DNA of 64,000 nt, from NCBI GenBank assembly GCA_951406725.2, contig OX597821.1, positions 64,294,001-64,358,000 of the forward strand. The letters are read 5' to 3'. The first letter of the stretch is position 1, and each line of letters opens with the position of its first letter. The notes under the pieces were generated by a model. It saw only the letters and a list, made by a program, of their open reading frames with translations. It did not search any database and was not told where the DNA came from. Both the position numbers and the translations under genes were made by a program. Positions 214-37,842 of this stretch are shown piece after piece. The stretch comes from Octopus vulgaris. Its lineage: Eukaryota.

Positions 214-582
214 CAATGAATACAGAGGTTAGTACATCTGCATAGTTTTCATTTCTACAGTTAATTATGCAGTATATTAAATTTATATGTGTCCGATGCA
301 CGTTTCTGCTGCAAAGCCACCTCACACTTGCATTTGCATCCAGTTACCTTCGACTGGTTATTAGACTATGCCGCTTTATTCAAGATCCATCTACGGACGC
401 ATCAGACTACAACTTGAATTAAGTTGTACAGTTTAATAACCAGTCGAAAGCAACTGGATACAAAAGCAATAACTAGGTGGTTTTGCAGCTGAAACGTGCG
501 TCGGACACATAAATCAAATATGCTAGATAACTGATAGTAGAAATAAAAAAGTATGCAGATATACTAATATCCGTATTCATTG
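214..582. mobile_element. Long imperfect inverted repeat (~150-bp arms), possible decayed Penelope-like palindromic element
   Basis: Arms pair by eye: caatgaatac/gtattcattg, tgtgtccgatgcacgtttc/gaaacgtgcgtcggacaca, ttcgactggttatta/taataaccagtcgaa. Right arm has a hammerhead-like 3' half GAAAC-GTGC-GTC (491-502) but no clear CTGANGA. Followed by (CA)n. Confidence 0.7.
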
Positions 583-596
583 CAATTAACATACTC

Positions 597-775
597 ACAC
601 ACACACACACACACACACACACACACACACACACACACACACACACACACACACATACACACACACGTACACACATATACATGCGTGTGTGAGTGTTTGC
701 TTAGTGCATCTATCTATCTATCTATCTATCTATCTATCTATCTATCTATCTATCTATCTATCTATCTATCTATCT
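597..775. repeat. (CA)n then (TATC)n microsatellites
   Basis: Directly visible; source of the spurious CVCV/THTH/IYLS ORFs. Confidence 0.97.
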
Positions 776-777
776 GA

Positions 778-960
778 TAGATCGCTAGCCACTACACTTT
801 CTTTATTTTCTCTCCCAGTTTCTTTCTGTGTTTCTTTCCGTCGAAGAGCGTAGGCTCGAAACGTTAAAGTCATTTACACTTCCCGAGCGTTATACTAATA
901 CATCTGTTTGTTGTCTACACCACATGTCTTCGTCTTTTGCTTTATTGTGAATTCTCCCTA
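778..960 (+). mobile_element. Short (TA)n-abutting element with atypical hammerhead-like motif (family P1, copy 1)
   Basis: Closely matching copy at 37661-37842 with the same ends (tagatcgctagccactacac ... gtgaattctccc then (TA)n). Motif cttt-CCGTCGAA-gagc-gtag-gctc-GAAAC-GTT-aaag at 834-869. Confidence 0.75.
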
Positions 961-3026
961 TATATATATATATATATATATATATATATATATATATATA
1001 TATATATATATATATATATATATAATATTGATATTTTACCTTTACAGATATATTCATATATATATATATATATATATATATATATATATACATACAGGCG
1101 CACACACGCACATGGTGAAATATCTGATTGCGCTGTAATATCTGTATACTTGTGTTTGTTTACGTGTGTGCATTTCTGGCAGGCATATAAAGCCAGACAA
1201 ACAATAACAGCCCATTAAGAAGAATGTCAACAACAATTAAACTATAATTAAAAGCCAAAACACTCAACTTGTAATAATTAACTAATGGTGAAAATAAACA
1301 CACACAGGCAGATAAACGCTCATACACACACATATATATATATATATACAAACATATATACACATATACAGGAATGTCTATGTATATATATATGTAGGGG
1401 GAAATTAAGATAAATACCAGTATAATATATATATATATATATATATATATATATATATAGGTATATGTATATGTGTGTATATGTATAGGTATATATTTAT
1501 GTGCGTGTGTATTTATATATGTATATAAATGTACATACAGATATATATGTATGTATCTATATGTATATGCATACGTAGACATCGAATGTTTCCAAAAAGT
1601 GAAGTAGATAATTACCTAATGATAATGCTATCTATATTTACACATTCAAATAAACAAATATAATATCGTTACCTGAGCAGCTAATAGCACTGAAAGGTTA
1701 ATTGTTAAACACATACTATTCTTGCAGCAATGGTACGATATTGTGTAAAATGTAAATGAGAAGAAAAAAAAAAATAATAATAACAAATGAAAAATATAAT
1801 TAAAAAAAAAACAAAACAAAATAAAACTATAATATATGTGTGAAATTAATGAATAAATGCATAAATATATATTGTAGAATGAGAAGAGATTTTTGTGTAT
1901 GACGTAAGAGGCTCGAAGAAATTTTCACTGATAACGGTGGAGTTTAAAATTAGAATGCAGTCATGATAAAAGATAATTAATAGAAATTAGGTAATAAGAA
2001 ACGAAGATGCTTAAAGAAACAAGGAAATGTAGAGTAGTAAGAAAGGCATGAAACTATATATATATATATATATGTGTGTGTGTGTGTGTGTGTGTGTGTG
2101 TGTGTGTGTGTGTGTGTGTGTGTGTGTGTGTGTGTATGTGTGTGCACGTGTGTGTGTATATATATATATATATATATATACATACATACGTATACATATA
2201 TATACATACATACGTATACATATATATATCATATGTACATATATGTATGCATATATATTACGATATATATACGTATATATCTGTACTTGAATATATATAT
2301 ATATATATATATATATATATACATATTCATATATATGAGTATACATAACTATATATACATGCCTACATTTGTGTATATATATATATATATATATATATAT
2401 ATAATATGCATATATATGTATTCATATAGTTCGTATGTGTGTGTATCGCTATCTGTTTGTCTCTCTCTCTTTCTACATAAAATTTGTGCGTGTGTACATG
2501 TATATATATATATATATATATATATATATATATATGTGGGGAGAGAAAAAGACAGAGACAGAAATTTAGAGGGATGAGGAGAAACAAACCGCACCAAAAA
2601 ACTATCTAAGTAACAAAAATGGCAGCTTAACAGGAAAAGGAAAGAAAAAATAATGGAAAAATACAGAGAAGTGTACAGACATAATGTGTGTGGGATGTAA
2701 TCCACGAGAGATAGAGCAAAGTATATATATATATATATATATATATATATATATATATATATATATATATATGTATATATATATGCATATATATATGAAT
2801 ACATATAAAGATTCACACACAATATATGCACATATATTAGCCGTAGGTGAGAGAAGCTGAGTACGGGAGAGATTTCATAGGAAGCAAACAAAAAGCAGAA
2901 AAGAAAAGAATGTTATTGTTTCAGTGGTGTTGCCCGGATGTGGAGAATTTCTTGAAGCAATCGAGTAATATCTTTAATCCACGAGGTTTATTTTAAAACC
3001 AGATGTCTTCTGGTATTTAATCTTTC

Positions 3027-3642
3027 AAGGCGGCGAGCTGGCAGAAACGTTAGCACGCCAGACGAAATACACAGCGGTATTTCGTCTGTTTTTACGTTCT
3101 GAGTTCAAATTCCGCCGAGGTCGACTTTGCCTTTCATCCTTTCGGGGTTGATAAATTAAGCACCAGTTACGCACTGGGTCGATGTAATCGACTTAATCCC
3201 CTTGTCTGTCCTTGTTTGTCCCTTCTATGTTTAGCCCCTTGTGGGCAATAAAGAAATAAGAAACATTAGCACGCCAGACGAAATACTCAGCGGTATTTCG
3301 TCTGTTTTTATGTTCTGAGTTCAAATTCCGCCGAGGTCGACTTTGCCTTTCATCCTTTCGGGGTCGATTAAATAAGTACCAGTTACGCACTGGGATCGAT
3401 ATAATCGACTTAATCTGTTTGTCTGCCCTTGTTTGTCCCCTCTGTGTTTAGCCCCTTGTGAGTAGTAAAGAAATAGGTGTTTCGTCTGTCTTTACTTTCT
3501 CAGTTCAAATTTCGCCAAGGTCGGCTTTGCTTTTCATCCTTTCGGGCTCGATAATTTAAGTACCAGTTGCGTTCTGGGGTCGATCTAATCAACTGGCCCC
3601 CACCCCCCAAATTTCGGGCCTTGTGCTCAGAGTAGGAAAGAA
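3027..3642 (+). mobile_element. tRNA-derived SINE family A, three tandem modules
   Basis: Head aaggcggcgagctggcagaaacgttagc (A-box-like), B-box gagttcaaattcc, conserved body gcctttcatcctttcggggtcgataaattaagtaccag three times; many other copies in the window. Confidence 0.9.
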
Positions 3643-3929
3643 TATATTTAATCGATGTTTATTTTGTAGCCAGATATCTTCTAATATTTAATCTTTCATT
3701 TTGAGAGAATTTCCGTTTTAAGTTTAAGCTATTTTGATACCAAAGATTATAGTTTGAGATATTCTACGGAAGCTGTGTACTGTAAAATCAACATCAGTAG
3801 TTTAGTCAGAAAAGTTCTCGCAAGTAGGATGTCATTAATATTCATAATGAGTCATATTTTATCAGGGAAGGAGCAGAACTATGATGAAAGATATTCCAGC
3901 CGTGACCAATCCATGTTTGAGAGTTATAT

Positions 3930-36150: not shown

Positions 36151-36289
36151 TAATTTAATTGGAAGACTGGATAATCGCCCCTGGAAAGCTGTTGGTCAAT
36201 AGTTTCTTAGGAGTGGAGATGACACACAAACATATATATATATATATATATATATACATATATATATATATGTGTATGTGTGTGTGTCT

Positions 36290-36545
36290 CTGTGTGTTTG
36301 TGTGTGCGTGTGCATGTGCATGTGCGTGTGTATGTGTATTTGTATGTTTGTGTTTGTCCTCCCACTATCGCTTGACAACCGATGCTGGTGAGTTTACATC
36401 CCCATAACTTAGCGGTTCGGCTAAAAGATCGATAGAACAAGTTCTAGGCTTACAAAGAATGAGTCCTGGAGTCGATGTGTTCGAATAAAGGCGATGCTCC
36501 ACCATGGCCACAGTCAAATGACTGAAACAAATCAAAGAATAAAGC
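36290..36545 (+). mobile_element. SINE family B 3' half
   Basis: atcgcttgacaaccgatgctggtg...catggccacagtcaaatgactgaaacaa. Confidence 0.87.
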
Positions 36546-37048
36546 ATATATATATATATATATATATATATATATATATATATATATATATATATATATA
36601 TATATATATATATAATTGGAGTCAACAAGAAAGAGTTCGGTCGGACATTTATATTTTTTAATAGCCACAATATTTCCAATTATCTATTCACACACGACAA
36701 ATGCCCAAACGCAAACCTGGAAGTACGTATAATGCATACTGGATAGCTCAGAGTAAATCAGAAGGTGGACGAGCTTTAAACCTGTACTGTACTGCGTTCG
36801 TAACAGAATATGCCATAACCATATATATATATATATGTGTGTGTGTGTATGTGCATATATATATATGTATATATATATATATATATATATATATATATAT
36901 ATATATATATATATATATATATATATATATGTATGTATGTATGTATATATTAGTTGGAAAAAGATTAGAGATGTACACAAATCAAATTTATATATATACA
37001 TGTCTTCAGTTATAACAAGGAAAACTGGAAAAAATTAATTAAAAAAAA

Positions 37049-37422
37049 TATAAAAGATGGAGGTGGAATTGGCACAGGATTAAGTCTAAGACATTTCAAT
37101 TTAAGAGGGAGTTTAATAAAAAAAAAATATATATATATAAAGAAAATATTACCGGTTTCGATGTATCTTATCTTATCATATATAAGTAAAAATTTATAAA
37201 AATTTGAAGTAAAAACAGTGCATCTTCTATCTCGGGGTGAAGAACATGTTCTTGATCCCCAGACAGAAGATAAACTGTCTTTCCTTCAAATTTTTCTGAT
37301 ATTTGATAAGATGAGATACATCGAAACTGGTAACATCTTTTTTATATAATATTTTATTAAAGTACCTCTTAAATTGAAATTTCATAGACTTACTTCTGGG
37401 ACATTTCCACCTCCTACTTATA
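37049..37422. mobile_element. Imperfect long palindrome (~185-bp arms) abutting (TA)n, hammerhead-bearing (family P4)
   Basis: ggaggtggaa/ttccacctcc, atttcaatttaagagg/cctcttaaattgaaat, gtttcgatgtatct/agatacatcgaaac; centre aagaacatgttctt at about 37240-37253. Confidence 0.8.
37298..37337 (+). ncRNA. Hammerhead motif with U3-A8 core variant
   Basis: gauau-UUGAUAA-gaug-agaua-cauc-GAAAC-ug-GUA-acauc; the opposite arm supplies the palindromic stem III ACCGGU and a matching stem I base. Confidence 0.58.
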
Positions 37423-37475
37423 TATATATATATATATATATATATATATATATATATATATATATATATATATAA

Positions 37476-37600
37476 TGTGTGGTAGGAAGTTCATTCCCAA
37501 CCACATAGTTCCAGGTTCAGTCTCACTGAGTGGCACCTTGGGCTACTGTCTGCTACTGTAGCCTCGGGCTAACTAAAGGCTTGTAAAGAAGCCCGTCGTA
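37476..37600 (+). mobile_element. SINE family B 5' fragment
   Basis: tgtgtggtaggaagtt...ccaaccacatagttccaggttcagtc...gaagcccgtcgtatata. Confidence 0.82.
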
Positions 37601-37660
37601 TATATATATATATATATATATATATATATATATATATATATAGTTATATATTCGCCATTG

Positions 37661-37842
37661 TAGATCGCTAGCCACTACACATTCTTATTTTCCCACCTTG
37701 TTTCTTTCTGTGTTCCTTTCTGTGAAAGAACGTAGGCTCGAAACGTTAAAGACTTTTTCACTTCCCGAGCGTTATACTAATACATCTGTTTGTTGTCTAC
37801 AACATCTGTCTTCGTCTTTTGTACTTTTGTGAATTCTCCCTA
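37661..37842 (+). mobile_element. Family P1 copy 2
   Basis: Collinear with 778-960; motif cttt-CTGTGAAA-gaac-gtag-gctc-GAAAC-GTT-aaag at 37716-37751; ends ttctccc then (TA)n. Confidence 0.78.

Follow-up and report, generated by a model that had tools for sequence, protein, structure and literature searches.

Hammerhead-bearing islands in a 64-kb stretch of Octopus vulgaris DNA are probably 5′-truncated insertions of several Penelope-like retroelement families

Penelope-like retroelements (PLEs) account for 6.83% of the Octopus vulgaris genome and comprise 190 families (PMC13282606). Truncated PLE insertions have been described with 5′ truncation, an adjacent inverted copy, a one-sided tail and a (TA)n bias (PMC8557442), and two start sites of reverse transcription as well as cleavage of AT-rich DNA on both strands have been reported (PMC11167929). 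Solo hammerhead motifs, opposed motif pairs 100-700 bp apart and a U3-A8 variant are known from metazoan PLEs (Cervera and De la Pena 2014, PMC4209133). The general phenomenon is already described in the literature; the role of the hammerhead in endonuclease-positive PLEs and the origin of the inverted copies and tails are stated there to be open (PMC8557442, PMC11167929).

The window, i.e. the whole 64-kb stretch of DNA under analysis, was scanned with a descriptor for minimal type I hammerheads, and 100 local dinucleotide shuffles of the window were used as the null model. Five hammerheads with an intact core were found, compared to a shuffle mean of 0.09 and a maximum of 1, and all five fall within islands that had been named in the original prediction. 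When one core change was allowed, 10 motifs were detected versus 0.98 expected and a maximum of 3 in the same shuffles, the motif at 30371- (U4C) being gained, and at the two-mismatch level 18 matches were obtained versus 8.4 expected. Eight islands in the 64 kb carry a full or a near motif, all of them in the first 38 kb, and the islands make up 4.5% of the window length (Table 1). The five sequence-unrelated island types that had been predicted were recovered at their positions; type H, fold-back G and the short third copy of type A had been overlooked. In BLASTN comparisons of all types, A to H were mutually unlike, with a sole match of 18 nt (E 0.03). No hammerhead model was present among the Rfam matches of island C (21) and island E (7), each searched alone, or among 150 listed of 434 window-wide matches, which were mostly microsatellites matching miRNA models.

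Table 1. Positions of the islands, their arms and the hammerhead motifs in the window
Feature	Position	Strand	Description
Type A copy 1	778..958	+	near-hammerhead, C3 at 838; 3′ end runs into (TA)n
Type A copy 2	37644..37840	+	near-hammerhead at 37720 has decayed; (TA)n follows the 3′ end
Type A copy 3	7004..7072	-	final 69 nt only, without hammerhead; same 3′ end; (TA)n 4 nt off
Type B copy 1 (B1)	4593..4835	.	inverted arm 4593-4714 (-), forward arm from 4715, tail ~60 nt
Type B copy 2 (B2)	30281..30616	.	inverted arm 30281-30523 (-); (TA)n on both sides
Type C	29809..30208	.	perfect 145-nt inverted arms 29809-29953 / 29980-30124; (TA)n on both sides
Type C hammerhead	29985..30027	+	intact minimal type I, palindromic 8-nt stem III block, GUA site
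Type C mirror hammerhead	29906-29948	-	in the other arm
Type D	33898..34186	-	one copy in window, without inverted arm
Type E	37049..37417	.	old fold-back, arms 73-75% alike; right end adjoins (TA)n
Type H	32070..32329	+	island between two TA-rich arrays
Fold-back F	214..582	.	77%; weak candidate; no (TA)n within 377 nt
Fold-back G	13445..13625	.	83%; weak candidate; right end at short TA run
Intact-core motifs	29989+, 29944-, 4684-, 34018-, 37303+		descriptor scan; 37303+ = U3-A8

Each predicted island had been expected to carry a hammerhead or near-hammerhead. This holds in full for C, D, E and B1, the cores of which are intact; B2 and H have one core change, type A with two changes is merely near, and type B contains an extra base. 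The stem III blocks of types A to E are self-complementary, with self-duplex energies between -1.7 and -16.6 kcal/mol; that of H is not. The distance from C3 to the 3′ end is 90-220 nt in A, B, C, D, E and H. Monomer folds are weak, with predicted mean stem I pairing probabilities of 0.00-0.78. The island hammerheads are predicted to need dimers. The fold-back copies would not self-cleave, as their two motifs are on opposite strands and read-through RNA is predicted to bury the core in a long hairpin.

The motif of the first type A copy shows U4C, A6U, an extra base after A9 and 4-bp stems I and II. The second copy is 88% identical to the first and extends ~17 nt further 5′; its motif has U6, G8A and a broken stem II. 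Low activity is reported for an A6C hammerhead (PMC3088659). Since the type A motif appears only at the two-mismatch level, its support comes from its repetition and from stem I being in register. An alternative register (U3.G8, A6 intact) was ruled out, as stem I is then unpaired. In type B, both copies carry the additional base between positions 11.1 and 12. The hammerhead of the first copy (4629-4689, -) has an intact core with the extra base 3′ of stem II, and that of the second copy (30316-30376, -) has U4C; the latter copy has a very short forward arm from ~30524 and a tail of ~70 nt. Within the window, type A displays three different 5′ ends on one common 3′ end; in type B, four different 5′ ends go with shared 3′ ends, and the tail is on the forward arm alone. 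In both types, this combination of fixed 3′ ends with 5′ ends that vary is the pattern of 5′-truncated insertions, and it speaks against the discrete units that had been proposed.

Type C has a spacer of 26 nt between its arms and a tail at 30125-30207. Copies outside the window were examined for type C alone, by means of contigs of public runs. It was found in 20 of the 24 runs listed, from 12 studies and 8 organisms; none of the runs containing it is listed as RNA, which has no bearing on expression. Run X1 yielded 15,317 contigs and run X4 2,929. The summed contig depth, which is not copy number and the gradient of which may partly reflect divergence or graph branching, was 3′ of the hammerhead 2.7 times (X1) and 2.2 times (X4) the depth over the hammerhead, and far lower upstream. 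In X4 and X17 the depth of the tail equalled or exceeded that of the arm, and the tail may therefore be shared with other families. Type C has two TA-flanked 3′ ends in the public runs: directly behind 30124, 39 (X1) and 19 (X4) contigs run on into (TA)n, and X13 and X17 each contribute one contig with TA-rich sequence following 30205. Moreover, 72 different head-to-head joints were found, and the 15 listed differ in hinge place and inserted letters; in 13 of these 15, both 5′ ends lie 10-30 nt 3′ of the predicted cleavage position, none within the motif. Many type C copies lack the hammerhead. In X1, places varying at ≥5% numbered 0/15 in the core, 1/43 in the motif and 14/181 elsewhere (p = 0.31 to 0.61), the difference between motif and other places being not significant (Fisher p = 0.31). 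The single variant at ≥5% within the hammerhead leaves stem III paired via G.U.

The type D hammerhead (33939-34023) has an intact core, a long loop II, a 10-nt palindromic stem III block and one stem I mismatch. Type E bears a U3-A8 hammerhead at 37298-37337 (+), and the mirror copy in its left arm is decayed. The type H motif (32121-32164) is hammerhead-like with A9C, an extra base after position 9 and a 6-bp stem II. The region 214-582, originally regarded as a weaker candidate, is indeed a real fold-back, with the GAAA half of the core and a GUC site only, the CUGANGA half being absent. Fold-back G gave no hammerhead with any descriptor applied. Where the direction is known, the fold-back is head to head in B1, B2, C, E, F and G; a one-sided tail of 60-83 nt is present in B1, B2 and C, and none was seen in E, F and G.

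(TA)n lies within 6 nt of 10 of 17 island ends, compared to 2.5% of background positions, although some of these ends were drawn at tract edges; independent of that choice are the contigs running into (TA)n behind 30124. The view that each island abuts (TA)n needs narrowing, as type E does not do so at both ends and 214-582 at neither. Upstream of the cores, the pyrimidine share is 0.63 versus 0.50 (p about 0.01, 5 types), a comparison chosen post hoc after seeing the sequence. In type C, a T-rich loose end ends in AG, 13 nt before C3. An intron acceptor near the hammerhead stem I is shown for D. virilis Penelope only.

As predicted, no island contains an open frame of >80 codons. Hammerheads overlapping a coding frame were considered and dropped, as the frames are short and differ between copies; the spacing between the core halves is frame-preserving in A, B, C and E, not in D. 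The longest type A frame, compared with longer proteins, gave one candidate and nothing significant, which is weak evidence. Of the 349 frames that are ≥45 aa long and not of low complexity, 150 were compared with Pfam, and no GIY-YIG or PLE-type match was present; these frames gave a LINE-type reverse transcriptase at 45700-46824, a weak zf-RVT match at 16871-17464 and otherwise sub-threshold noise. The best named relative of a LINE in the window is octopod. In contigs from viruses, metagenomes and prokaryotes, where animal sequences are not to be expected, exact patterns of types A and C had no matches, and two short island motifs were absent from the supplementary text of PMC8557442 and PMC13282606.

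In comparison with described systems, the islands resemble the endonuclease-positive PLEs (Penelope/Poseidon, Neptune, Nematis, Hydra; PMC8557442) in 5′ truncation, an inverted copy joined at the 5′ end, a tail at one end and a hammerhead near the 3′ end. The differences are the length of the tails, which is 30-40 nt in the published cases and 60-83 nt here, and that the islands show no ORF. A (TA)n preference like that of the islands is listed for cephalopod Naiad and Hydra families; Naiads, which have no full hammerheads, could account for no more than islands F and G with their half cores. With the metazoan PLE hammerheads (PMC4209133), the islands have in common a short stem I, a palindromic stem III, the U3-A8 variant and the occurrence in one genome of several unrelated families of motifs, which are mainly solo and sometimes opposed; types A and H additionally share the extra base after position 9. 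In contrast, types C, D and E are without this base and C has U10.1-A11.1, the extra base of type B between 11.1 and 12 is on an unusual side, and type A has U6 instead of A6.

Taken together, the islands are probably dead, strongly 5′-truncated insertions of several PLE families, of which 70-300 bases of the pseudo-LTR (pLTR) 3′ end were kept. They are likely not a new class of mini-elements but the tail ends, often folded back, of a known kind of retroelement. The motifs, the fixed TA-flanked 3′ ends, the variable 5′ ends and hinges, the one-sided tail and the high copy number of type C are observed. The enzyme is inferred, and the source RNA may be coding or non-coding; no clade can be named because no ORF was seen. 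The proposed link to Penelope and the TA preference are backed by the anatomy, with no reverse transcriptase or GIY-YIG ORF tied to any island. Mechanistically, both strands of AT-rich or (TA)n DNA would be nicked by the GIY-YIG endonuclease of the element. Reverse transcription would begin at either of two fixed positions on the RNA, giving a tail-less or a tailed 3′ end, and would break off early at variable places. Two short cDNAs would then be joined head to head, with the inverted repeat as a by-product of each insertion. Since the hinges vary among type C copies, the inverted repeat is likely made anew in each case.

A possible though clearly less favoured explanation is that some or all of the types represent discrete non-autonomous derivatives of PLEs, short non-coding masters being copied in trans by a PLE enzyme. 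Truncation and fold-back of such masters would give products of the same appearance, the absence of ORFs would be accounted for, the two long type A copies start within ~17 nt of each other, and both non-autonomous pLTR-bearing PLEs (PMC8557442) and pLTR-derived retrozymes (10.64898/2026.07.22.740005) have been published. The sharp fall of depth 5′ of the type C hammerhead also fits, but truncated coding elements give a steep 5′ fall as well, and one 1,303-nt contig continues from the type C hammerhead into 1,196 nt of other sequence upstream. Furthermore, no fixed unit was found, neither in length nor in 5′ boundary or inverted repeat. The original prediction of discrete non-autonomous families with a shared inverted-repeat layout does not agree with the type C copies, given their shifting hinges and frequent lack of the hammerhead.

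It is unlikely that the weaker islands A, F, G and H are unrelated repeats resembling hammerhead carriers by chance. Two-mismatch motifs are common, F and G have no core and mostly no TA flanks, and H is single in the window with a stem III block that is not self-complementary. On the other hand, stem I of type A is in exact register with the core and its copies follow the truncation pattern; its extra base after position 9 and G10.1-C11.1 are typical of PLE motifs, and type H combines these two features with its 6-bp stem II.

Non-LTR retrozymes (PMC7229834; 10.64898/2026.07.22.740005), the tandem hammerhead repeats of which cleave themselves, form circles and reinsert and would here be present as monomers, are a very improbable source. 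Type I hammerheads in non-coding, pLTR-related units of 180-400 nt and the common occurrence of monomers in some families are shared features, but retrozymes are arranged head to tail with mostly canonical motifs, whereas the islands are dispersed, head to head and minimal, and PMC7229834 assigns minimal motifs to PLEs, not to retrozymes. Within the window there is no head-to-tail island copy and no tandem unit with two or more hammerheads on one strand, so that the earlier comparison with retrozymes fails on the tandem layout. The paired motifs are on opposite strands, and in the type C read-through RNA all 7 core bases are predicted to be paired. MITE-like DNA elements with terminal inverted repeats, a TA target and incidental motifs, suggested by small non-coding fold-backs such as the perfect type C repeat between TA tracts, are largely refuted for type C and extremely improbable: the right end of type C bears an 83-nt tail outside the repeat, the repeat is not terminal at both sides, its hinge shifts between copies and length is not fixed, A, D and H are without inverted arm, and the motif excess is far beyond chance.

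Within the preferred reading of truncated PLE insertions, it appears rather doubtful, though conceivable, that the hammerhead sets the end point of reverse transcription in vivo, by cleavage of the template or by the folded ribozyme blocking the enzyme, with the freed ends being joined head to head; the type C depth falls at a zone just past the predicted cleavage site. If true, the ribozyme would contribute measurably to PLE insertion, a role not found by in vitro work, and this would be directly testable on tens of thousands of octopod copies of several families, including those with variant cores (A6U in type A, an additional base ahead of G12 in type B). A few percent of the Octopus vulgaris genome likely consists of PLE 3′ stubs resembling MITEs or unknown repeats, for the classification of which the hammerhead is a handy tag. 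Type C is young and very abundant, and its insertion end points form a natural data set on which the role of the hammerhead and the origin of inverted copies and tails can both be tested by counting.

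The window is DNA of animal type, rich in AT and in SINE-like repeats, in which 141 rows of tandem repeats were listed. Eleven islands were delimited in it, together comprising 2,889 nt or 4.5% of its length. Ten of 17 island ends were located at most 6 nt from a (TA)4+ tract, compared to 2.5% of background positions; in this comparison the end of the B1 tail was set about 20 nt short, as it actually enters a CA run and then TA.

Positions of islands and other features in the window (cores according to the final descriptor)
Feature	Position	Layout	Hammerhead motif
Type A	778-958; 37644-37840; 7004-7072 (A3)		Position 6 is U in each full copy
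Type B, B1	4593-4835	Fold-back	Intact core
Type B, B2	30281-30616	Fold-back	U4C change
Type C	29809-30208	Fold-back; arms 29809-29953 and 29980-30124, 26-nt spacer, tail 30125-30207	Two intact cores, one per strand
Type D	33898-34186		Intact core
Type E	37049-37417	Fold-back	Intact core (U3-A8)
Island F	214-582	Fold-back	No core found with the descriptors used
Island G	13445-13625	181-nt fold-back, 83% arm identity; right end at short TA run followed by (CG)n(TG)n	No core found with the descriptors used
Type H	32070-32329	Between two TA-rich arrays; no second copy found within the window	Hammerhead-like; A9C core, 6-bp stem II
Short island	1022-1056	35 nt amid TA tracts; final 15 nt match type B 3′ end	
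SINE-like repeat	3027-3594; 7241-7640; 11299-11531; 12936-13328; 41849-42382; others	184-nt unit duplicated within the repeat; over a dozen copies	
LINE-type reverse transcriptase (RT) fragment	45700-46824	327 aa open from 45844	
198-aa frame	16871-17464	Weak zf-RVT match	
Minisatellite	59854-61085	GC-rich, 22-nt unit, 55 copies, higher-order period 67 nt	

An octopod host is likely: among named relatives the LINE-type RT (45844-46824) is closest to one from Argonauta hians, an octopod (60% identity, against 41% for the next). The 198-aa frame resembles the end part of an ORF from a non-LTR element.

Type I hammerhead descriptors of rising looseness were scanned against the window and against shuffled sequence. 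The strict descriptor yielded three CUGANGA matches versus 0.1 in the shuffles and one U4C match, and a looser one yielded six matches versus 0.66 expected (maximum of four in 200 shuffles). With the final descriptor, which tolerated one additional base on each flank of stem II, five intact cores were found versus 0.09, ten matches with at most one core change versus 0.98 and 18 with at most two versus 8.4, ratios that are somewhat flattering because the descriptors were tuned after inspection of the islands. Among the four remaining one-change matches only that of type H (32126) looks convincing; those at 23274, 34687 and 14313 were treated as chance. The islands are real and their motifs well above chance. 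The original prediction of hammerhead-bearing islands at TA tracts holds in part: 214-582 has no core, and type A is a near-hammerhead only. Type A nevertheless has stem I in register, G10.1-C11.1 and one additional base behind A9, which PMC4209133 names as marks of motifs from Penelope-like elements (PLEs); low activity of an A6C variant is reported in PMC3088659. The stem III blocks of types A to E are self-complementary and the predicted monomer folds weak, as is described for motifs acting as dimers.

Ends, hinges and tails could be read directly from the sequences. Six fold-backs were detected by microsatellite masking or alignment; where the hammerhead gives their direction, the 5′-ends meet centrally and the 3′-ends point outward, and the forward arm, but not the inverted one, runs on into a 60-83-nt tail in B1, B2 and C. 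The three type A copies have three 5′-ends and one 3′-end, and each of the four type B arms has its own 5′-end. The 35-nt island is possibly an extremely short remnant.

Copies beyond the window were analyzed for type C, of which at least half of the words were present in 20 of 24 listed public sequencing runs (12 studies, 8 organisms). Four runs gave 15,317 (X1), 2,929 (X4), 8 and 50 contigs, whose summed depths are no copy number. With mirrored bins summed, the depth 3′ of the hammerhead was 2.7 times (X1) and 2.2 times (X4) that over it, and it was far lower over the upstream spacer. Loose ends behind 30124 were pure (TA)n in 39 X1 and 19 X4 contigs and a TA-rich continuation followed 30205 in one contig each of X13 and X17, which indicates two 3′-ends, both TA-flanked. 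In X4 and X17 the tail (30113-30208) was covered at least as deeply as the arm. Near 30113-30131 it is joined by other sequences, and it may be shared with other families. In 13 of the 15 displayed joints (72 in all) the left arm (29879-29898) is connected to the right arm (30034-30050) by varying letters and the hammerhead is absent. Since hinges and inserts differ, the inverted repeat is not a fixed structure of the family. Conservation of the motif did not significantly exceed that of the remaining sequence: variable places occupied 1 of 43 motif and 14 of 181 other positions (p = 0.31). Inside the motif, 29916 T>C is the sole variant of at least 5%; it accounts for 48% of the depth in X1 and 60% in X4 and changes a stem III A-U pair to G.U.

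In the 13 central joints, among the 15 best-supported of 72, every one of the 26 5′-ends lies 10-30 nt downstream of the predicted cleavage site, coinciding with the depth step; none lies at the site itself, and the ends of B1, B2 and A3 lie elsewhere. Either cleavage of the template or stalling of the RT at the ribozyme could account for the cluster. Against this, microhomology alone could draw the hinges to this A/T-rich, partly palindromic stretch. At 29957/29958, 13 nt before core position 3, type C is joined in public contigs by a loose end that is rich in T and terminates in AG, and a single 1,303-nt contig (run guessed to be RNA) departs from the genomic sequence exactly there. The site is a possible intron acceptor, for which one contig is no proof.

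PLE insertions are reported in PMC8557442 to be 5′-truncated and biased towards (TA)n; many have a neighboring inverted copy, itself truncated, and on one end a tail of 30-40 bp, shorter than those of B1, B2 and C. Its cephalopod entries include Naiad and Hydra families that target (TA)n. Minimal hammerheads occur in thousands per genome in several families, mainly solo, with some opposed pairs 100-700 bp apart, the U3-A8 variant and low activity (PMC4209133, in part). According to excerpts of 10.64898/2026.07.22.740005, tandem retrozymes derive from pseudo-LTRs and PLE insertions are mostly truncated to one terminal repeat, and canonical tandem retrozyme motifs are distinct from minimal PLE motifs (PMC7229834, excerpt). 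In O. vulgaris, 190 Penelope-like families make up 6.83% of the genome according to PMC13282606, whose main text lacks the word "hammerhead". A literature search of a partial collection, with repeat databases outside it, returned no paper on octopod PLE hammerheads. In PMC11167929, as far as accessible, both strands of AT-rich DNA are cleaved, two RT start sites account for the tail and the hammerhead is dispensable for insertion in vitro.

Most likely, each island arose from a single abortive insertion in which a PLE enzyme used target priming at a TA-rich site. By analogy with the Anolis element, both nicked strands would serve as primers and the RT would start at one of two fixed sites on the RNA; early termination and head-to-head joining of the products would follow. 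The source RNAs may have coded for the enzyme or borrowed it. In the type C fold-back the first core half is predicted to be fully paired (seven bases, each with probability 1.0), and genomic fold-back copies of this type are therefore likely to be inert. The islands are best classed as truncated and inverted PLE pseudo-LTR ends, a known type of remnant.
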